From IMG/VR virus record IMGVR_UViG_3300029258_002856: DNA of 64,000 nt; one strand, 5' to 3'. This document shows positions 14,467-46,953 of this stretch, piece after piece (the first letter of the stretch is position 1; each line of letters starts with the position of its first letter). The notes under the pieces were generated by a model. The model searched no databases and was not told where the DNA came from. It saw only the letters and a list, made by a program, of their open reading frames with translations. This stretch comes from a virus. The translations under genes were made by a program, and so were the position numbers.

Positions 14467-14476
14467 TTTACCACGT

Positions 14477-14513
14477 AAAGAGAACTGCAATGCGCAAGTA
14501 GTTCTCTTTTTTT
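14477..14513 (+). terminator. intrinsic terminator
   Basis: AAAGAGAACTGC/GTAGTTCTCTTT stem plus T-tract; homologous to 18849 copy. Confidence 0.8.
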
Positions 14514-14515
14514 GT

Positions 14516-14524
14516 TGGTACAAG
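14516..14524 (+). promoter_or_regulatory. TGGTACAAG putative promoter element
   Basis: Follows terminator, precedes AAGGAGG and ATG 14548. Confidence 0.5.
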
Positions 14525-18592: not shown

Positions 18593-18846
18593 TGCCTTTC
18601 TGGGACCATCTTGAAACTTATCTAGAGGAGAAGGGCGTCGAATACAACTTTCGGATGGGAGGTGAGCAGTACGATACTGCTTGGGTCGTAGAACTGGACA
18701 ACGTGCCGAGACGTGTAGTGGATGACTTACTTGTTCCTGCCATTCGAATAATGGCGAGGGAGGATTTTTTCTATGTGAATAATGTCGTGTATAACGACCC
18801 TCGTACAACCATTTACATATCCTTCGGCACCAAGAAGTGGAAGTAG
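18592..18846 (+). CDS. hypothetical protein, EKG paralog family
   Basis: YLEEKG motif; TGATG coupling. Confidence 0.8.
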   Translation: MPFWDHLETYLEEKGVEYNFRMGGEQYDTAWVVELDNVPRRVVDDLLVPAIRIMAREDFFYVNNVVYNDPRTTIYISFGTKKWK

Positions 18847-18848
18847 AG

Positions 18849-18883
18849 AAGAGAACCGCAACGCGCGAGTGGTTCTCTTTTTT
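18849..18883 (+). terminator. intrinsic terminator
   Basis: AAGAGAACCGC/GTGGTTCTCTT stem plus T-tract. Confidence 0.8.
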
Positions 18884-18891
18884 GGTATCAG
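18883..18891 (+). promoter_or_regulatory. TGGTATCAG putative promoter element
   Basis: Abuts terminator T-tract; upstream of AAGGAGG and ATG 18928. Confidence 0.55.
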
Positions 18892-18927
18892 GGCATGTGA
18901 AAGTTTTACTGCGTAAAGGAGGAGCGT

Positions 18928-28730: not shown

Positions 28731-28874
28731 ATGACTACAATATTCAAATGGCTCTGGGGCTTGTTCTTTGGGAAGGACACTCGAAACTCTCCTACCGCCC
28801 ATCGCGTGAAGACCTATACACGTTCCCAAGGTGGCAGGAGAGTTCGAGTGCGAGGATACAGGAGAGGCGTATGA
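28731..28874 (+). CDS. small basic protein
   Basis: MTTIFKWLW...HRVKTYTRSQGGRRVRVRGYRRGV. Confidence 0.55.
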   Translation: MTTIFKWLWGLFFGKDTRNSPTAHRVKTYTRSQGGRRVRVRGYRRGV

Positions 28875-29563
28875 AGGTGAAAATCACGGACGTGATTCCT
28901 TCGGTGCGTCTCCCGGCGGGAAGGGTCGGCAAATATACCATCGACCAGTTCGAAGTCAACGAGATGGATGCGGTGACGTACAACCTCAAGCAGCACCTGC
29001 ATGATACCCCGGAGATGGGGATGATACCGGGGACGTATACTCGGCTTTGGCGGCAGGACGAGACACCCGTCGTCATGATGTCGGATACGCTCTCGGAGCG
29101 CCGTGACCACGTGGATTTTGTGCTCAGCGCGTGGGGAGACGTGCTGATAAACGGGCTCGGACTTGGGATGTGCATCGACCCGCTCATGGAGCAGGAGGAG
29201 GTGTGTCGAGTCACGGTCGTGGAGAAGCAGCAGGAAATCATCGACCTTGTAGCCCCGACCTACTGCCGCAGATACCCGAAGCGGTTTCGCATCGTGCACG
29301 CGGACGCATTCCTTTACGAACCCGAGGAGTGTCCCGACGTTGTGTGGAACGACATCTGGGACACCATCAGCGATTTGAACGTGCCGGAGATGGACACGTT
29401 GGAGGCCAAGTACGAAGAGGCAGCTTGGGTAGACTCCTGGGCGCGGGAGCGCTGCGAGAACTTTGTTGATTTCGTTAAGGCGCGCATCGAGAAGTGGGAC
29501 CAGATTGCGAAGAACCTGCGCCTGTTGCAGGAGAATGGGCGGTTTGTAGACTCGAGCGATTGA
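28871..29563 (+). CDS. class I SAM-dependent methyltransferase, spermidine-synthase-like
   Basis: VLINGLGLG (motif I), VTVVEK..EII, IVHADAF, DVVWNDIW. Confidence 0.75.
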   Translation: MKVKITDVIPSVRLPAGRVGKYTIDQFEVNEMDAVTYNLKQHLHDTPEMGMIPGTYTRLWRQDETPVVMMSDTLSERRDHVDFVLSAWGDVLINGLGLGMCIDPLMEQEEVCRVTVVEKQQEIIDLVAPTYCRRYPKRFRIVHADAFLYEPEECPDVVWNDIWDTISDLNVPEMDTLEAKYEEAAWVDSWARERCENFVDFVKARIEKWDQIAKNLRLLQENGRFVDSSD

Positions 29564-29591
29564 GCTATCATTGAGGACAGGAGGGAAGGAC

Positions 29592-29714
29592 ATGAACAGC
29601 ATTCGCGTAGCGATGGAAACGGACAGGAAATTGACCTTGGTCGAGCTTGCCGTTGCCGTCCCGCTGCTGTCCCTGGCAGTGGGGCTCATTGTTTGTGGCC
29701 TAGTCTACTTCTAG
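29592..29714 (+). CDS. small membrane protein (40 aa)
   Basis: SD GGAGG/AAGGA; single TM helix. Confidence 0.55.
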   Translation: MNSIRVAMETDRKLTLVELAVAVPLLSLAVGLIVCGLVYF

Positions 29715-29755
29715 TTCCTTTTCCCATACGACATTAAGCACAGTGGAGGTGTGTC

Positions 29756-30241
29756 ATGCGCCTGACGCAGGACATTATCGATTTGGTGGTAAAGCACCTG
29801 AGGGACGAGTTGTTCGAAAAGAAGCATGACGGGGCAGACTGCCCAATCTGCACCCGCAAGGTGAAGATGTACAAACGGAAGCTCAACAAGGACATGGCGA
29901 AGTTCCTGGTGATGCTCGTTAGCAAGTTCCGAGAGGAGCGCCGCTTTTACGCGACGAACGAAATCATTCAGGGCGGTAATAAGAATGCGACGGACGGGAT
30001 TTACCTGGTACACTGGGGCCTGATTGAAAAATCCGATGATACGAACCGTGGAACTCAGGGGTTGGGACTTTTCCGTCCGACGCAGGATGGCATCAGCTTT
30101 GCGCTTAACGAGACGGTGGTGCCTACGCATGCGCACATTTTCTTGGGCGAGAAAGTAGGTGAGAGTTTTGACAGATGCTACATTGCGGACGTTCTTGGAA
30201 AGAATGACTATTCAGTTCTTAGAGGACATTGGTTATCCTGA
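29756..30241 (+). CDS. hypothetical protein with CPIC motif
   Basis: SD GGAGG. Confidence 0.75.
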   Translation: MRLTQDIIDLVVKHLRDELFEKKHDGADCPICTRKVKMYKRKLNKDMAKFLVMLVSKFREERRFYATNEIIQGGNKNATDGIYLVHWGLIEKSDDTNRGTQGLGLFRPTQDGISFALNETVVPTHAHIFLGEKVGESFDRCYIADVLGKNDYSVLRGHWLS

Positions 30242-30446
30242 GTACGCGCCGCGGTTTCGTATCGAGGACATTGAATACTGCCCGGCGTGTGGCGCACCAT
30301 GGAAAGGCACCAAGAGGTACGGTACTCGGGTAATCGCGCTCGAAGACCCGAACATTTACGACGGAACGTGTTACTGGATATGTCCGGATTGCAACGCATG
30401 CTGGGATGCTTTCACCGGGGAAATGACGAAGGAACCCGATGAGTGA
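30204..30446 (+). CDS. zinc-ribbon protein
   Basis: CPAC...CPDC. Confidence 0.7.
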   Translation: MTIQFLEDIGYPEYAPRFRIEDIEYCPACGAPWKGTKRYGTRVIALEDPNIYDGTCYWICPDCNACWDAFTGEMTKEPDE

Positions 30447-30798
30447 TGAGACCAAAAACATAGGGCGGCACATCACCGTAGTGATTACGGAGAGGTTGAC
30501 GAGAGACGTAGACCTGGACGCGGATGAGCCGGTCTCGTTGCAGATACAAGGGCGACGTCTCGTTGCACCCGGGATGAAGCCCTATCCCCAGCTTGCTCCG
30601 AATGAGCTTGTCCAAATCCTGGTCGATTCCATTGCCGCGGTGGCACAGGAATACTTGGGGGACTCTGTGGACCTCGAAGCGTTTGCGGATGATGTTGCCG
30701 AGGATGTCCTCTTCCATCTCGAGTGTATGGAGAAGGTTCCCGACCAGGATGAGATTCATGTTGCCACTGCGCAATCTGGTTTGAAAAATATTCACTAG
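30439..30798 (+). CDS. acidic hypothetical protein
   Basis: Coupled ORF. Confidence 0.7.
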   Translation: MSDETKNIGRHITVVITERLTRDVDLDADEPVSLQIQGRRLVAPGMKPYPQLAPNELVQILVDSIAAVAQEYLGDSVDLEAFADDVAEDVLFHLECMEKVPDQDEIHVATAQSGLKNIH

Positions 30799-30810
30799 CT
30801 GTGGTACAAA
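30781..30810 (+). promoter_or_regulatory. sigma70-like promoter
   Basis: TTGAAA-N18-TACAAA with TG extension (TGGTACAAA). Confidence 0.55.
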
Positions 30811-31207
30811 GATGTGTCATGCGGCGTGTCTATGTTTTCACGCCGCACTATGCATGTGCCGCTTCGGCGGCAGCTACGGGGACTGTCGGGACAGTCCCAA
30901 CACAGACGGTTGTAGACCCATGAGTGAAAGGAGGGACCCAAATTGCCTGACTGAAACTCACAAGTTTCACAACCAATTAATGTTAAGGGTCGCAGCGTTT
31001 CTACGGGAAGCCTGCTGCCAGAATGTCCCGGGCTAAATTATGCCGACGTGGGGCTGGCAGTCGGTTCGCAGGACTATGGTTGAGCCGATTCCCGTGCACA
31101 AGTTGAGTGGCAGCGCCCTTCGGGGACTGTGACGACCACGGGCATAAACCCAACGTGAACGAGGACGAGCCCCAGCCTGATACGCTGGCAGCTCGTCCTT
31201 TCTTTTT
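30811..31207 (+). ncRNA. candidate structured ncRNA of unknown family (~390 nt)
   Basis: Promoter upstream, terminator downstream, no credible ORF, many perfect stems including two C(UUCG)G loops. Confidence 0.6.
31162..31207 (+). terminator. intrinsic terminator
   Basis: AGGACGAGC/GCTCGTCCT stem plus TTTCTTTTT. Confidence 0.75.
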
Positions 31208-31274
31208 GGTCCGAGAACATCCGCCTATACTTTACCTGATGTTCACGCGGTAACTACATTTACGGAGTAATGGT

Positions 31275-31907
31275 GTGTACACGGTTTCGGTAGAAAACAT
31301 CAGCGGGGGAGTCATTGTTATCCAGGACCCGTACCCTACAGAGGGGCGGTTGACGATGCCGGTTGCCCCGGGAGAGACTGAAGTCCAGGAGATGATGGAC
31401 TCGCAGTACGACCGCATCAAGCCCCAACTCGACTGGCACCAGATAGAAGGGCGCATCCTCTATACGGCCTTCAATGGTCCGGCCAGCAAAATTATTAACG
31501 ACTCCAGTGTTCCCGGGCAGAGCGTAAAAGACGCGCTCGAAAACATTGTGGCCGGGTACACGCTTGACGTTTTTGCTTTGGCGGCTGGGCGTCAGGGCGC
31601 TGACATCACCGACGTGTATTTGCGGGGGCCGGGAGGGGTCCCAACAAATTTGGCGGGCTACGTCATGGCGTTCGACGCCAGGATTGTTGCTATTAGCCTA
31701 GCGACCACCGGAGCTGAAACCTGGACGTTGGAGATTCGAAAGAACAACAGCGCAACGGTGATTGCGTCGCTGTCTTCCGGGGGTGCGGACAAGGCGTATG
31801 ACGATACGATTGCCGTGGACGTTGACGCGGGGGACGAGCTCCAGTTCTACTGTAACGGGACGGCTATTTCTGCGCCCAGCGGTACGATTATCTTGAGGAG
31901 GCGATAA
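31275..31907 (+). CDS. putative virion structural protein
   Basis: GTG start after GGAG; beta-rich C-terminal domain; first gene of structural-like operon. Confidence 0.65.
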   Translation: MYTVSVENISGGVIVIQDPYPTEGRLTMPVAPGETEVQEMMDSQYDRIKPQLDWHQIEGRILYTAFNGPASKIINDSSVPGQSVKDALENIVAGYTLDVFALAAGRQGADITDVYLRGPGGVPTNLAGYVMAFDARIVAISLATTGAETWTLEIRKNNSATVIASLSSGGADKAYDDTIAVDVDAGDELQFYCNGTAISAPSGTIILRRR

Positions 31908-33715
31908 TGGGTCTCTACCTCACAACGACTGGCACCCTCGACCCTGTGATAGTTGATGACCTGGGAGCGCGGTCCTTCCCGCATCCTACTGTGGACTTTG
32001 ACCTCATGGATGAGTTCACGGAGGACGAGGTTCAATCGTCACGTGACCTTCAAGCGCTCATCGATGCGGGGCATATCATCATCAAAGATGACGAAGGTGA
32101 CCTAGTTCCTATCGTCCAGGAGGCTGGGCCACACAAGCACCCGATAGGGGATTTACTCGACCTCACGCAGTTTGCGGATATGAGTGAGCCCACGGGATTT
32201 CCTACACGTGACGATAGTGTGATTTCCTTCGTTGACGGGAGTCGCACGTTTACCATCGAACCCGCGGTGAGTGAGTTCAGCTATTACATTTCCGGTGTAA
32301 AGCACGTAAAGTCTTCCTCGCAGACGAAGGTGATCTCTATAGACGAGGGGCTGCATTACCTCTATTTTGATGGGGACACACTCACTGAAACCACGACTTT
32401 CGACATCAATCTGCTTTACGAAAAAGCATTAGTGGCAATCGTTTACTGGGACGCGTCTAACTCCAAGCAAATCTATTTCGCGGATGAGCGCCATGGTTGC
32501 ACCATGGACGGGCAGACGCACGCACTCTTGCACCTGGTTAGAGGTACGGCCTGGATAACAGGATTGGCGATTGATGGACTGCTAACGGACCAAGACGGGT
32601 CACTCGATACTCACGCGCAGGCGGGATACACGGCGGGGGTAATCCGGGATGAGGACCTCACGTTTGATATAGCAGCGGACACAGCTCCTGCGCAGATACC
32701 TGTTTATTACAAGGACGGGGCTACTCCGGTTTGGAGGCAGTTCACGGCAACGAACTTTCCCGTAAGACAGTATCTAGGAAATCCGGCGAATCGATTAGCG
32801 TACAACCAGTTCACCGGAGGTTCGTGGCAGCAGACGCAAGTCACTGATGGTGACTACGTGCTGGCACATTTGTTTGCTACCAATGACGCTGCTCGCCCTG
32901 TTATCGCTATTCAGGGGCAGAACGAATACGGGAATTTGCCACAAGCGCGCGTGGGTGCTTCGGTAGAATTGTCTAATTTGGTATTGGGCGGTTTTCCGAC
33001 GGTAGAGATAACCCCTCTAGGTACTATCATCTTTCAGACAAAGGCGACATACACCAATTCGGTCAAGGCGCGCACGGTGTCGAGTCTTAGTGCTGACTAC
33101 GTAGATCACCGTACGTTCACTGCGGCGAGTACCGGTAGCGTCAATGACCACGGTAATCTTTCTGGTCTTAATGATGACGACCATCTCCAGTACATGGCCA
33201 TGGCACGTGTCGGGGATGTTACAGGTCTTATAAATGAAGCCGCTCCTGGAGGGACCGACGTGCTTTTGATGGAGCGGGCGTCAGATGGCGCAAAAAGAAA
33301 AGTTCCTGTCAGTGCGGTAGGCGGGGGGAGCAGCGGACCGCCGACAGTTATTCAAGGGTCAGAAGATACGCAAGATAGCACTACGTCAGGGTCTTGGGTA
33401 CTAGCGTGGCGTTTTTCTCCCACACTCGAAGTTGCCAAGTACGTGCTTTGGTTTTCTTCTGAGATTGTATCCGGTAACGGTACCGATAAAGTGCACGCGA
33501 AACTCGAACTCGACGACACAACGGTCATATCCCAAGTAGCGCACGAACCTGAAGACCTGGAAAACAATGAGTGGCAGACCTTTGCGGGGGTTTATTTTCT
33601 GAATAATACAGTTGCAGGTTCTCATAATTTTGACTTTGATATTTTTAGTCAGAATGGCGGGAATACTGCGTACATTCGGCGTAAACGCATCGTACTCATG
33701 AAGGTGGAGGAGTAA
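31907..33715 (+). CDS. putative tail fibre/virion accessory protein
   Basis: 602 aa beta-rich; DHGNLSGLNDDDHLQY motif typical of phage fibre proteins. Confidence 0.65.
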   Translation: MGLYLTTTGTLDPVIVDDLGARSFPHPTVDFDLMDEFTEDEVQSSRDLQALIDAGHIIIKDDEGDLVPIVQEAGPHKHPIGDLLDLTQFADMSEPTGFPTRDDSVISFVDGSRTFTIEPAVSEFSYYISGVKHVKSSSQTKVISIDEGLHYLYFDGDTLTETTTFDINLLYEKALVAIVYWDASNSKQIYFADERHGCTMDGQTHALLHLVRGTAWITGLAIDGLLTDQDGSLDTHAQAGYTAGVIRDEDLTFDIAADTAPAQIPVYYKDGATPVWRQFTATNFPVRQYLGNPANRLAYNQFTGGSWQQTQVTDGDYVLAHLFATNDAARPVIAIQGQNEYGNLPQARVGASVELSNLVLGGFPTVEITPLGTIIFQTKATYTNSVKARTVSSLSADYVDHRTFTAASTGSVNDHGNLSGLNDDDHLQYMAMARVGDVTGLINEAAPGGTDVLLMERASDGAKRKVPVSAVGGGSSGPPTVIQGSEDTQDSTTSGSWVLAWRFSPTLEVAKYVLWFSSEIVSGNGTDKVHAKLELDDTTVISQVAHEPEDLENNEWQTFAGVYFLNNTVAGSHNFDFDIFSQNGGNTAYIRRKRIVLMKVEE

Positions 33716-33716
33716 T

Positions 33717-34337
33717 ATGGCCGCCACTAAGTACTCGTATTCGGTTTCGGGGGACTTCCCAAACCAAAAAGTGAATCCCACATCTCTCAAAAATGAGATT
33801 GAGGCCAGTTCAATAGCCATAACGTTTGGGTATGTGTTCGTAAAGGGAGATGTTTGTGACCTTTGGTTTGATGATGTCCTCTCCACCGAAGACCAGTTGA
33901 CGTTAGACGGCGTAGTGGCGGCACACCAAGCTACGCCCCCCTACATATTCGTCTTTAAGGCGTCGTCGAAAGTGGTGGGGAGTGACCCTAAAAGTATTAC
34001 TAATCCTTCAGAATGGGAAGAGGCGGGTGGGGCCGTTACAAACATAAGTTTTTTCCTTCCGGACGTCACTAAGGCATGGGGACGATTTAGTGTGGATGTT
34101 AAGACGAACGGCGCTGGCGCGAAACTTCGAGTTATTCGTCAAAGTGACGGCGCGGTTTGTACTGCGGCAGACATCGATATCCCGGATACTGGAGGGACGT
34201 GGCAAATCGTATCGTTTTGGGCTAATCAGAATCAACCCCCTGGACCAGACCGGTTTGTGTTGCAAGGATTCCTCAATGGAGCCACCGATTTCCAAGTTCG
34301 GGACTGTGCGGTGTCCTTGATGGCGTGCAACCAGTAA
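33717..34337 (+). CDS. putative virion structural protein
   Basis: Beta-rich; in operon with 31907..33715. Confidence 0.6.
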   Translation: MAATKYSYSVSGDFPNQKVNPTSLKNEIEASSIAITFGYVFVKGDVCDLWFDDVLSTEDQLTLDGVVAAHQATPPYIFVFKASSKVVGSDPKSITNPSEWEEAGGAVTNISFFLPDVTKAWGRFSVDVKTNGAGAKLRVIRQSDGAVCTAADIDIPDTGGTWQIVSFWANQNQPPGPDRFVLQGFLNGATDFQVRDCAVSLMACNQ

Positions 34338-34338
34338 C

Positions 34339-34893
34339 ATGTCTGGAAAAGTTCTTATCGCTCTTTCCGCTTCGAACGCCTTCTACGGAAAATTACTCCG
34401 TAAAGCCCTGTATGAGCATTCGAAGACACCCAAGGACGAGCAAGTCAATCATGCCTTCATCGTCTACAAGTCCAGTGACTGGCAGGACTGGCGCGCGGTG
34501 GACATTCAGGAGAAGGGCGTGCAGCCCACTCTTCCGGTCAAGCACCTGAAACGGGTGGACTACGTGGAGTGTTATGAGTTGCCCGATGTAGACCTCTGGA
34601 AAGGTCTACGCAGTTGCAAGAATGACCTCTACAAGAAGTACGATTGGATAGGTCTTATTTTTGGTTTTGTACGCCTGCTCTTAGCGCTTGTTGGCTGGAA
34701 GCTCAAAAATCCCATTCATGCCCACAACCGTCTCTTCTGTAGTGAGTACGTGGCGAAGGTCCTGAAGAAGTCAGGGGCTCCTGCGGTGGACCACTGGGCA
34801 CCCGCCAATGTTTCACCGAAAGACTTGCAAGACTACCTGCACCATTACGGGAAGAAGGCTCCCCCACCTACTGCACTCATTGAGGCTATGTGA
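34339..34893 (+). CDS. permuted papain-like (YaeF/YiiX, C92-type NlpC/P60) enzyme
   Basis: N-terminal NHAFIV His, KYDWIG, C-terminal LFCSEYVA Cys. Confidence 0.75.
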   Translation: MSGKVLIALSASNAFYGKLLRKALYEHSKTPKDEQVNHAFIVYKSSDWQDWRAVDIQEKGVQPTLPVKHLKRVDYVECYELPDVDLWKGLRSCKNDLYKKYDWIGLIFGFVRLLLALVGWKLKNPIHAHNRLFCSEYVAKVLKKSGAPAVDHWAPANVSPKDLQDYLHHYGKKAPPPTALIEAM

Positions 34894-35243
34894 TGTACGA
34901 ATACCGAGGCAAAGTCATCAAGGTTGTGGATGCGGACACGTTGGACATCGCGCTTGACCTGGGGTTCAGCCATACCTGGGAAGTTCGTTTCCGGCTGGCC
35001 AACATCGATGCCTGGGAAGTGCGGGGGGAAGAACGAGAACAGGGACTCGTTGCCAAGGAGTACGTCATCGAGCGGCTCGCCAACATGGAAGGCGAGTACG
35101 TGGTGGTGAAGACGTACAAGGACAAGACCGGTAAGTACGGTCGTTACCTGGCGGATATCTTCATCCCTGAAAAGACCGGCGAGCTCGTAAATCTTAACGA
35201 GGAGCTGGTCAAGCTCGGTCACGCCAAGTGGGCGAGTTACTAG
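34893..35243 (+). CDS. thermonuclease (SNase-like) family protein
   Basis: YEY.GKVIKVVDADTLD...DLGF...RFRLANIDA.E, KYGRYLA. Confidence 0.85.
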   Translation: MYEYRGKVIKVVDADTLDIALDLGFSHTWEVRFRLANIDAWEVRGEEREQGLVAKEYVIERLANMEGEYVVVKTYKDKTGKYGRYLADIFIPEKTGELVNLNEELVKLGHAKWASY

Positions 35244-35268
35244 TAACCTCCTACAAAGGAGTTGTGAT

Positions 35269-35502
35269 ATGCAACGGCTCATTCGTGTTTTGAGCGTGTT
35301 GGCGTTTATTGTCGCCATCGCGTTTCTCTTTTTTTGGGCAACGACGCTCTGTAGTTGTATGCCAGAAGCCGAAAAGTATGTGCGCCTACGGTATCCGCAT
35401 TGTGACGTAAAATTAGTGGAAAAGACTTCGAAGGACTCGAAGTTCTTGATATCCTGTCCGGGACAGGAACCGTTCGAAAGGTCGTACCGGGAGATGCGGT
35501 AA
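35269..35502 (+). CDS. small secreted/membrane protein
   Basis: N-terminal hydrophobic helix followed by Cys. Confidence 0.65.
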   Translation: MQRLIRVLSVLAFIVAIAFLFFWATTLCSCMPEAEKYVRLRYPHCDVKLVEKTSKDSKFLISCPGQEPFERSYREMR

Positions 35503-36053
35503 TGCCATTCAAGAGCAAAGCGCAGCAGCGATGGATGTTCGCTGCGGAGGAGCGGGGGGAAGTTCCCAAGGGGACTGCCAAGCGTTGGGCGGACCATACC
35601 CCGAATATTAAAAAGCTACCGGAGGAAAAGAAGATGCGCAAATCAGCAGAACAAATCGCCCATGCGGTGCTCGTGAAGGTGGCGACGGGTAGTTGCGCCA
35701 CTCCGGGTAAGAAAATCAAGAGCAAAGGGAAGGGTCAGGGGAAAGCTCGGGGGAAGGGTAAGGGTCCTCTCGGAATTCCTCGGGACATGAAAACCGCGGA
35801 ACAAATTGCCCATGCGGTGCTCGTGAAGGTGGCGGAGGAAGAGGGGAAGGCCCCCATCACCATCGGTGGACGTATTGGCGGTTCCATCATCGGTGCACAG
35901 TTGGGCGCAATTCTCGCCTCTCTTGCGAGCAGAGGTAATACCCCCATGGGCATTGCGGGTGCCCTCTTGGGTGCTGGGGGCGGTTACGGTGTCGGTACCG
36001 CTATTGACCGTGCTCGCCAGCGTTCTATCAAAAAGCAGATGGGCATTGAGTAG
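35502..36053 (+). CDS. putative virion-internal protein with two AEQIAHAVLVKVA motifs
   Basis: N-terminal MPFKSKAQQRWMFA module; duplicated motif; Gly-rich hydrophobic C-terminus. Confidence 0.7.
   Translation: MPFKSKAQQRWMFAAEERGEVPKGTAKRWADHTPNIKKLPEEKKMRKSAEQIAHAVLVKVATGSCATPGKKIKSKGKGQGKARGKGKGPLGIPRDMKTAEQIAHAVLVKVAEEEGKAPITIGGRIGGSIIGAQLGAILASLASRGNTPMGIAGALLGAGGGYGVGTAIDRARQRSIKKQMGIE
35649..35834 (+). repeat. 36-bp direct repeat pair (35649-35684 and 35799-35834)
   Basis: GAACAAAT(C/T)GCCCATGCGGTGCTCGTGAAGGTGGCG, one mismatch, 150 bp apart, in frame. Confidence 0.9.
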
Positions 36054-36925
36054 TGCCTCGAGTTGACCCAGAGACGGAGCTTCCGCTCTACCAGGCGGAA
36101 GACTTCTATGCTCGTACCCTCCCGGCGCTAGGTGGCGCTGCTACTGGCGGTAGGATGATGGGTAAAGCGTACTGGGATGTTTTACGTCCTCGGTGGGGGC
36201 AGACTCAGGGTCTTCTCAACAAGCTGAAAGCGGTCACTGTCGGATTGCCGAAAAAGACGCACCTCGGTATCCTGGGAAGGGGTTTCAAGGGTAGCGTTCT
36301 TGGTGCGCTCACAGGTTTAGGTACGGGACTCGCAGTAGATGCGATGCGAAGACAGGCGCGGGAGTCTTACGCAGCAAAGGCGCAGGGTGAAGGGATGAAA
36401 ACGGCAAAAGAAATCGCGGCGGCTGTGCTCTCCACGGAAGCCCGGGACGACCTCAGCAAGAAGCAATTCGCATTGCCCAAGCAGAAGAAGTATCCCATCC
36501 CGGATAAGACCCATGGGGAGAACGCCTTATCCCGAGTTTCCCAATTCGGCACTCCGGCGCAGCGAGAAACTGTACGGAGTAAAGTTTACAGCAAGTTCCC
36601 GGGTCTCAAGGAACGCTTCAAGAAGCGGGAAGGGGAGTCTCCTACTTCCAAGGAGAACATCCGCAAGGAGAAGCTCGGGGCAGAGCGGATTGCGTTCCGG
36701 GTCCTGGCGAAGACCGCAGCGCTCCAGTCCGGCGCAGAATCGGGCACCAGCGGGGGCCTCGGCATGAATGACCCAACAGGCGCGACCCTTCTCTCTGCGG
36801 CGACGGCGAAGGCGCAGAACCAGCAGAATATGCCGCCCAAGACTGCGCCGACCAAGCAGATGGCGCAGAACACAGGTGGCCCAAAGAAGGCCTCTGTCCT
36901 TCGTTTCTTCAATCGAGAGTGTTGA
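36053..36925 (+). CDS. putative virion-internal protein with DUF6582-like segment
   Basis: FALP..KKYPIPDK.HGENALSRVSQFG segment; MKTAKEIAAAVL and AERIAFRVLAKTA motifs. Confidence 0.6.
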   Translation: MPRVDPETELPLYQAEDFYARTLPALGGAATGGRMMGKAYWDVLRPRWGQTQGLLNKLKAVTVGLPKKTHLGILGRGFKGSVLGALTGLGTGLAVDAMRRQARESYAAKAQGEGMKTAKEIAAAVLSTEARDDLSKKQFALPKQKKYPIPDKTHGENALSRVSQFGTPAQRETVRSKVYSKFPGLKERFKKREGESPTSKENIRKEKLGAERIAFRVLAKTAALQSGAESGTSGGLGMNDPTGATLLSAATAKAQNQQNMPPKTAPTKQMAQNTGGPKKASVLRFFNREC

Positions 36926-42785: not shown

Positions 42786-43164
42786 GGGGGTGACTTGGTT
42801 TCGACGTTGATGAATGAAGTGTGCAATGCGTGCCCCGCTTGTGAGCCAGCGGATTAAAAAGACTCTCAACCACAACTGCCGACAACGTAGTTGAACTCTT
42901 CCCGAAGGTCGAGGCGGCTCCGGTCGCCAAGGCTGCTTGAGGGAATGTCCAACCGAGAAGTGCCTGTGTACTCGGAAGGGCATCATCTTAACAGGATAAG
43001 GCTGAGAGGTTGTTCCTCGCCCACCTCAGTACGAAAATCTAAGAGGTCCAATCTAGCCCGAGTTGGGCTCCGTGATGGAGGCTAGAGAGCAGAACGGGCT
43101 ACGCACGTAACGAGTTGTACATGACGCATTGGCGGACCTGGGTTCGATTCCCAGCGCCTCCACC
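42786..43164 (+). ncRNA. ssrA: tmRNA (transfer-messenger RNA)
   Basis: 5' GGGGGTG...TTTCGAC; acceptor stem with G3-U70 to CGCCTCC-A-CC; T-arm GGTTCGATTCC; tag ORF 42878-42940 encoding (A)ADNVVELFPKVEAAPVAKAA stop; terminal A of CCA not encoded. Confidence 0.95.
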
Positions 43165-43400
43165 CAGCGGTCTGAACGGAGACGTGACCAGCATGAGCCT
43201 GACGAGTGAAGGCGTTAACCGTAGCGAGGGTGGGTACCCAGAAGCCCTCACGCCACAACGAGGCAAGGAACAGTGCGAAACAGCGTCCGTGACTTAGAGA
43301 GGAGAGAATCTCCGAGCGGGTGAGAGGCCCGCATTCCAATTCACATAGTTTGGCAGCTGTGTGTGCCCTCTTCCGAGCGAGCGCTGTTAATAAGTCGGCC
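43165..43400 (+). ncRNA. candidate structured ncRNA immediately 3' of tmRNA
   Basis: No ORF; several hairpins and crossed long-range pairings (AACAGCG/CGCTGTT, GACTTA/TAAGTC). Confidence 0.45.
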
Positions 43401-46497: not shown

Positions 46498-46525
46498 AAA
46501 AAAAGAGCCCGCGTTGCACGGGCTC
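46498..46525 (-). terminator. intrinsic terminator
   Basis: GAGCCCG/CGGGCTC stem plus T-tract on - strand. Confidence 0.8.
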
Positions 46526-46953
46526 GGTACTCACTTGCTGAGGGTAGAACAGGAAGAGAGACCGCTCGGCTTCTTTTGTACGAAGTACACTTCTCCGCCC
46601 CGGAGTTACTCCGGGAAAATTAGCAATTCCAAGTGAGTCATGGTTCCCGTATTGCTGAGAGGAGGGAGCTACCCGGCGGAGCGACGCTGTAAGCAGTTGG
46701 AATGCTTCATCTTCTCAGGCCGCCGCGGCCCGGACGCCTCGAACTGGAGCGCTGCTAAGCGCAGGCTCCGATTCCTGGAGTTACTCCAGGTGCCTACTGA
46801 GTTAAATAGGCTCCAATACGAGAGGGGGGTTTTTGCACTAGCTGGTTTTCCGGCCGGAGCACCAGGTCCTCGGCAGGCCGTCGGATCGATTGCGTCGAAG
46901 ACGCGAAGTGCCCTACCGTAGTTACTACGGTACTTGTTGCGGCTCCTAGTGCT
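46498..46953 (-). ncRNA. candidate structured ncRNA or hairpin control region with three G-UAA-C triloop stems
   Basis: No credible ORF; perfect hairpins at 46599-46615, 46774-46790, 46914-46932; ends in terminator. Confidence 0.45.

Follow-up and report, generated by a model that had tools for sequence, protein, structure and literature searches.

The locus studied here lies in a 64,000-nt stretch of viral DNA (IMG/VR record IMGVR_UViG_3300029258_002856), which was analysed at its full length and is called the window below. The window is part of a jumbo-phage contig of ~180 kb, and a 180,788-nt ENA contig was identical to it over positions 28907-36715. A 476-nt gap (30799-31274) lies between the stop codon of a gene for a 119-aa protein (30798) and the GTG start of a gene for a 210-aa protein (31275). 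Upstream is an operon of a methyltransferase gene, a 161-aa gene and a Zn-ribbon gene, and downstream is a tail-fibre-like operon. The original prediction had located the stretch at a boundary between modules, and this held, with an accessory/DNA-modification operon on one side and tail-fibre-like genes on the other. We found 26 homologues of the 210-aa protein and many of a 602-aa protein, the other domains of the latter homologues being typical of tail fibres and spikes. The head of the upstream operon encodes a 271-aa protein (28748-29563, plus strand) that matched a PHROG methyltransferase family (E = 2e-31) and, weakly, PADLOC mads_2 (E = 2.5e-4).

The 119-aa gene is coding (codon log-odds +0.33). 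Among 1.84 billion representatives the only relative of its product was a 97% variant; no Pfam, PHROG or PADLOC match was obtained for it, and its AlphaFold model was unusable (pLDDT 54). The features of this gene, of the gap and of its downstream flank are as follows.

30439-30798, plus strand: gene for a 119-aa acidic ORFan, inserted along with the structured stretch relative to other lineages
30781-30810, plus strand: candidate sigma70-like promoter, TTGAAA-N18-TACAAA
30820-30898, plus strand: three tandem hairpins, pair probabilities 0.95-0.99, with perfect inverted repeats I7 and I8
30820-30847, plus strand: hairpin H1, TGCGGCGTG/CACGCCGCA, 9 bp
30857-30872, plus strand: hairpin H2, TGCCGC-TTCG-GCGGCA, with a cUUCGg tetraloop
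30879-30898, plus strand: hairpin H3, GGGACTGT/ACAGTCCC, 8 bp
30908-30974, plus strand: irregular long hairpin with a GGUUGU/ACAACC closing helix, helix probabilities 0.96-1.0
30927-30934, plus strand: Shine-Dalgarno (SD)-like AAAGGAGG, near the apex of the long hairpin
30943-30954, plus strand: mini-ORF TTG-CCT-GAC-TGA, near the apex of the same hairpin
30952-30969, plus strand: TGAAACT/AGTTTCA hairpin, which competes with the long hairpin
30987-31151, plus strand: predicted four-arm multiloop domain closed by GGGU/ACCC, helix probabilities 0.66-0.97
30992-31015, 31016-31059, 31060-31089 and 31091-31142, plus strand: the four arms, a single-sequence prediction
31091-31142, plus strand: CCCGTG/CACGGG, the fourth arm, which holds the second cUUCGg loop
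31116-31125, plus strand: CCC-TTCG-GGG, the second cUUCGg loop
31161-31207 (hairpin 31161-31200), plus strand only: intrinsic terminator, GAGGACGAGC...GCUCGUCCUU with an inner CCAGC/GCUGG helix, then UUUCUUUUU
31223-31274, plus strand: downstream promoter/leader of the 210-aa gene, CCTATACTTT ... TTTACGGAGTAAT; context, outside the RNA

Coding status of the gap

Codon log-odds were trained on 19 genes of the window. Per codon, real genes scored +0.13 to +0.40, with the small gene neighbouring the gap besides the 119-aa gene at +0.23, whereas ORFs of the gap scored -0.31 to +0.18. The sole gap ORF with a positive score passes through the terminator and the downstream promoter motif. None of the six gap ORFs (0/6) was called as a gene in a 15-billion-protein collection; the contig has been gene-called at least 7 times. 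The codon scores, the search of the protein collection and the recoding tests described below all agreed that the gap contains no credible ORF, as originally proposed, and the stretch is non-coding.

Candidate frames were rejected as follows. A Cys-rich 74-aa ORF (30812-31036) had a log-odds of -0.28, lacked an SD sequence and was never gene-called; the Cys codons in it arise from the GC-rich stems. Reading TGA as W opened a 116-codon frame from the SD-TTG, which crosses the conserved terminator and promoter motif and scored as non-coding (-0.06 per codon), and the neighbouring genes do end at TGA. Recoding the gap with TAG=Q or TAA=Q gave nothing credible.

We also considered that the gap might be what is left of one or more decayed accessory genes, with the start signal AAAGGAGG-N8-TTG surviving. 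The SD sequence is strong and correctly spaced to the TTG from which the 116-codon frame would begin if TGA were sense, and the same slot carries genes in other lineages (a 167-aa gene in lineage L046, for example). However, that frame has the non-coding score and the conflict with conserved signals and TGA usage given above, and the perfect stems and tetraloops would be left unexplained by decay. Moreover, blastx of the gap against all ORFs of related loci returned one match, antisense and at E = 0.01, to L045/L046; it would have made the stretch a relic of the 161-aa gene, and a profile HMM on the sense frames did not confirm it. A pseudogene origin is thus improbable.

Predicted fold of the stretch

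All of the stems, the SD-like site, the mini-ORF, the promoter-like hexamers and the terminator of the original prediction were present at the positions it had given. RNAalifold in model R1 yielded the same four-arm structure, which is a single-sequence prediction. The window contains 18 copies of the motif AAGGAGG, where 9.7 would be expected, and roughly one in two of them lies ahead of a gene. A pseudoknot that had been proposed from crossed pairing of GGTTG/CAACC with GACCC/GGGTC could be written, but its 5 bp per side are of chance size and GACCC has two alternative partners, and it was set aside. An internal duplication (30874-30886 versus 31118-31130, and 30841-30865 versus 31067-31091) was rejected as weak, the best local score being reached by 17 of 500 shuffles.

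When folded together with the terminator, the plus strand gave a minimum free energy of -164 kcal/mol (z = -3.95); without the terminator z was -2.68, and 1 of 100 shuffles equalled it. After G+C correction the stretch ranked 2 of 637 in stability among 400-nt windows, and its count of perfect short hairpins was the highest in the 64-kb window, at ~10 times the mean. The ensemble was well defined. Its diversity per nt was 0.129, against 0.141 for the phage's own tmRNA and 0.24 +/- 0.075 for random windows, and its positional entropy was 0.56, against 0.60 and 1.02 +/- 0.31, respectively; only 3-5% of random windows did as well. In addition, two of the hairpins bear the extra-stable cUUCGg tetraloop. 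The structure exceeds chance, and the strong, unusually well-defined fold that had been claimed was borne out at the level of the tmRNA.

This fold bears on two readings. The one we favour, at a little short of an even chance, is an accessory, moron-like insertion specifying a stable structured RNA. Nearly as likely, and itself a tentative proposal, is an inert structured 3′ untranslated tail that would have no function beyond, at most, slowing 3′-to-5′ decay; it would have arrived together with the 119-aa ORFan or built up in a slot prone to recombination, and no transcript other than the end of the upstream operon would include it. An inert tail has against it the two tetraloops, a hairpin density unmatched elsewhere in the 64 kb, and a fold that equals a real structured RNA of the same genome in how well it is defined. 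The modest z without the terminator argues for such a tail, as does the finding that the non-homologous spacers of L045 and L046, folded with their terminators, also lie below shuffles (z ~-3.1 to -3.5), a result that counts against an accessory RNA. The minus strand, which folds nearly as well (z = -3.94), counts against it too. The plus orientation is nevertheless indicated, because the terminator works in one direction only, the plus fold is ~8 kcal/mol better than the minus fold and it contains ~11 G-U pairs.

Known RNA families and homologues

As part of the original claim, the stretch was said to have no hallmarks of known RNA classes. A scan of the whole window with Rfam 15 at gathering thresholds agreed, reporting a tmRNA at 42786-43165 alone and no family for the stretch; thus no gathering-threshold match was found to RNase P, SRP, 6S, tmRNA, group I/II introns, ribozymes, ROOL, GOLLD, pRNA or riboswitches. 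At E<=10, a scan of 30600-31400 gave two chance matches, snoR30 (15 bits) and IRES_Bip (8.8 bits), which lie at the element's edge or beyond it. ARAGORN detected no tRNA- or tmRNA-like domain in the stretch, its sole match being the tmRNA (42786-43164). The phage tmRNA, on the plus strand, matched the full-length RF00023 model at 124 bits, and ARAGORN assigned it the tag peptide ADNVVELFPKVEAAPVAKAA.

Homologues were sought by several routes. Blastn against 50,697 phage records gave no match besides the element itself. The same was true when all fetched loci were searched with blastn and nhmmer, when BLAST and a covariance model built on the four-arm domain were applied to related IMG/VR records and to 215 kb of loci, and when IMG/VR was scanned twice for exact patterns. 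No paralogues were found within the window, and the route via the 210-aa, 602-aa, 161-aa and 119-aa proteins led to no intermediate relatives. Four copies of the locus (L001, L047, L048 and L049) were identical across the gap. No homologous sequence was obtained anywhere in these searches, which leaves the fold without covariation support or an estimate of constraint and counts against an accessory RNA. Within the window, no antisense target had complementarity of more than 12 nt, and the pairing possible with codons 2-7 of the 210-aa gene (I2; 13/17 complementary) is of a size expected by chance.

A variable slot before an ancestral terminator

We then compared the window with related loci. 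In the phage and in three other lineages (L004, L045 and L046) the order of elements is the same: the 161/153-aa gene, the Zn-ribbon gene, a slot, the terminator, two conserved blocks and the 210-aa gene. The 161/153-aa gene has 64% identity across lineages, and in 4/4 lineages it is followed by the Zn-ribbon ORF (CPxCG ... WWVCPDCxxxW), located as follows.

Zn-ribbon ORF: 30159/30204-30446 in the window; ~2098-2379 in L004; ~2507-2722 in L045; ~2100-2290 in L046

This ORF lies in the +1 frame and overlaps the end of the upstream gene. In the relatives no obvious start codon was seen near the upstream stop, and gene callers passed the ORF over; fusion by +1 frameshifting, or alternatively a long overlapping start, could explain this.

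The slot differs in every lineage. It measures ~20 nt between the Zn-ribbon gene and the terminator in L004 and ~180 nt in L045, holds a 167-aa gene plus ~110 nt in L046, and holds the 119-aa ORFan plus ~360 nt in the window, and these contents show no sequence likeness to one another. Comparing L004 with the window revealed a moron-type insertion between genes that are adjacent in the relative. Relatives at 57-67% identity do not have the structured stretch, which counts against an accessory RNA, and more distant relatives have only 9-96 nt ahead of the 210-aa gene. The conserved gene order around a variable slot shows that the terminator and the promoter/leader following it are ancestral and that the structured body is a lineage-specific insertion. 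An inert tail gains from both results, as the slot is hypervariable and the terminator is not the element's own.

In the nearest variant an uncalled, ORF-free gap of 499 nt lies at the same place. Three contigs represent this variant, one from ENA assembly ERZ23498365 (4663 nt), one from ERZ23498357 (3835 nt) and a Logan contig of SRR10072857 (1728 nt). The 119-aa protein is 97% identical in this variant and the 210-aa protein 93%, and a 603-aa protein is 78% identical to the window's 602-aa protein. The 499-nt gap indicates that the element was retained with a net length change of 23 nt, which is not a multiple of three. Such retention speaks for an accessory RNA. Judged by the sequences compared, the stretch appears to be limited to this phage and its nearest variant only.

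The terminator itself is real. Its interrupted stem of 14-15 bp followed by TTTCTTTTT had a free energy of -22.1 kcal/mol and pair probabilities of 0.98-1.0, and no intrinsic terminator found elsewhere in the window was stronger. On the minus strand no T-run follows the hairpin. A homologous terminator occupies the same position in L004, L045 and L046. Of the proposed promoter-to-terminator unit, the terminator was upheld, but it is not the RNA's own: it is ancestral, closes the upstream operon and is conserved also in relatives that do not have the RNA. Other plus-strand terminators of the window lie ~15-85 nt past stop codons, versus 360 nt for the one at 31161-31207, a distance that speaks against an inert tail. 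As a separate observation, the plus-strand terminators at 14470-14518 and 18840-18888 share a 38-nt sequence that is 87% identical, forming a repeated terminator cassette, AGAGAAC[C/T]GCAA[C/T]GCGC[A/G]AGT[A/G]GTTCTCTTTTTT.

Past the terminator follow the two blocks, CCTATA[A/C]TTT and CTTTACGGAGTAAT, which are conserved also in L004, L045 and L046. The TTTACGGAGTAAT block belongs to a near-palindromic motif class, TTTACGSCGTAAA, with 24 occurrences in the window (<=2 mismatches) versus 0.84 expected, and a motif of this type is absent upstream of the structured stretch. TTTACGSCGTAAA is probably the phage's own operon start signal, a candidate promoter or operator. Sites include 3997, 18905, 22510, 28134, 31259, 38982, 42397, 51621, 57446 and 60301; several are found directly after terminators or before gene starts, and one follows the terminator at 18879-18917.

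These signals also bear on whether the stretch could be a cis-acting leader or attenuator of the tail-fibre-like operon, in the manner of lambda PR′-6S RNA-tR′. Transcription from a constitutive promoter would then end at 31207, and the 210-aa and 602-aa genes would be reached only if the folded leader or an antiterminator allowed the polymerase past that point. A promoter-like site, a long structured leader and a strong terminator with structural genes 67 nt downstream would suit such a device, as would the two mutually exclusive foldings around 30908-30974. The short ORF-free layout from promoter-like site to terminator, immediately upstream of late structural genes, recalls that of lambda 6S RNA. 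However, in the relatives this terminator comes immediately behind a coding gene, with no leader between, and the promoter/leader motif is kept past it, which means that the late genes have their own start signal. Furthermore, no antiterminator gene was identified; unlike the lambda system, the locus offers no evidence of a Q-like antiterminator or a qut-type site, and the stretch is about twice as long as lambda 6S RNA and far more structured. We therefore give control of the downstream operon little weight.

Promoter candidate

The sequence at 30781-30810 can be written as TTGAAA-N18-TGgTACAAA, an extended -10 form with TG one base before the -10 element, and the stop codon of the 119-aa gene falls within it. 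It was the only match to TTGAMA-N15-19-TAHAAW in 64 kb, where 0.17 would be expected. The site sits exactly at the 5′ edge of the structured stretch, a position that disfavours an inert tail and speaks for an accessory RNA. A scan with the strict sigma70 consensus did not report 30781-30810. Sigma70-like promoters are not enriched in this phage, which counts against an accessory RNA. Of the sigma70-like promoter that had been predicted, then, the hexamers are present, and they make up a single imperfect match. From the sequence we infer that the site may function as a promoter.

Discussion

Phage morons are accessory insertions between conserved genes, with their own promoter and terminator, and have been described for lambdoid phages. 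The stretch resembles a moron in that it is present in one lineage and missing at the same junction in relatives, and in that a promoter-like site and a terminator flank it at the boundary of two conserved modules. It differs in that its cargo is apparently an RNA (plus the upstream 119-aa ORFan) and not a protein gene, in that the terminator is ancestral and was not brought with the insert, and in that the promoter is a candidate only.

We favour, with the reserve expressed above, an accessory structured RNA over the other readings; a small remainder of the probability falls to explanations beyond those considered here. The stretch would then be a lineage-specific, non-coding accessory insertion giving rise to a stable, highly folded RNA of ~350-390 nt from the plus strand. 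It would occupy the variable slot at the 3′ end of the methyltransferase/161-aa/Zn-ribbon operon, before the ancestral terminator, so that at the least the operon transcript should carry it as a tail. A discrete RNA would probably start from the TG-extended -10 promoter candidate at 30781-30810. Its predicted architecture would comprise the three 5′ hairpins, the long hairpin presenting the SD sequence and the start-stop mini-ORF, the four-arm junction and the terminator hairpin. The most likely action of such an RNA would be in trans, as a protein- or ribosome-binding decoy or sponge. An antisense regulator is not suggested, because no target in the window has complementarity longer than 12 nt. 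The original prediction had listed a ribozyme, an antitoxin and a virion RNA among possible roles, and nothing in the analysis points to any of these.

A more far-reaching version, which we consider rather unlikely, is that jumbo phages carry an undescribed class of large structured RNAs as accessory cargo and that the stretch, independently transcribed and ~390 nt long, is its first member. In that event the four-arm domain and the SD/start-stop hairpin might bind a host or phage factor, such as the ribosome, a defence sensor or a nuclease, and the stretch may be one of several such RNAs in the genome, another structured gap having been noted at 46.5 kb. The stretch as it stands is a candidate RNA and not a proven new RNA class.

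Known phage RNAs offer partial parallels. Like ROOL, GOLLD and phi29 pRNA, which are phage-encoded, ORF-free, multi-helix RNAs of hundreds of nt with unknown or structural roles, the stretch is ORF-free and built of many helices. Unlike them, it shows no similarity to these families by cmscan even at E<=10 and adjoins no tRNA genes, and it is smaller than ROOL and GOLLD and larger than pRNA. The tmRNA at 42786-43165 is a stand-alone structured RNA gene of the same genome with similar length and fold-definition statistics; it differs from the stretch in having a tag reading frame and the RF00023 match, whereas the stretch has neither a tRNA-like domain nor a family match.

The stretch matches nothing described, although phages with orphan structured RNAs between their genes are familiar. 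RNAs related to translation, such as the tmRNA of this phage, are carried by jumbo phages, which are increasingly suspected of using RNA against host defences. If the stretch is a stand-alone, ornate RNA in an accessory slot, it would be a concrete candidate for an anti-defence function, and a tractable one, with ~390 nt and clear boundaries. Its present value is that of a well-delimited candidate from a single lineage, together with evidence that the slot before the terminator is a hot spot for accessory cargo.

Two other regions of the window were noted in the course of this work. On the minus strand, 46502-46953 is a second long (~450 nt), ORF-poor and hairpin-rich stretch. It separates a gene stop (46954) from an intrinsic terminator that is strong (-19.8 kcal/mol, with its T-run at 46501), and it shares no sequence similarity with the structured stretch. 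On neither strand does the largest ORF-poor stretch of the window, 1024-1908 (~880 nt), have an ORF of at least 52 aa. Its A+T content is relatively high (0.47 over 1001-1400), copies of the TATACTTT and TTTAC motifs occur in it, and it could possibly be a regulatory region, an origin or a further RNA locus.
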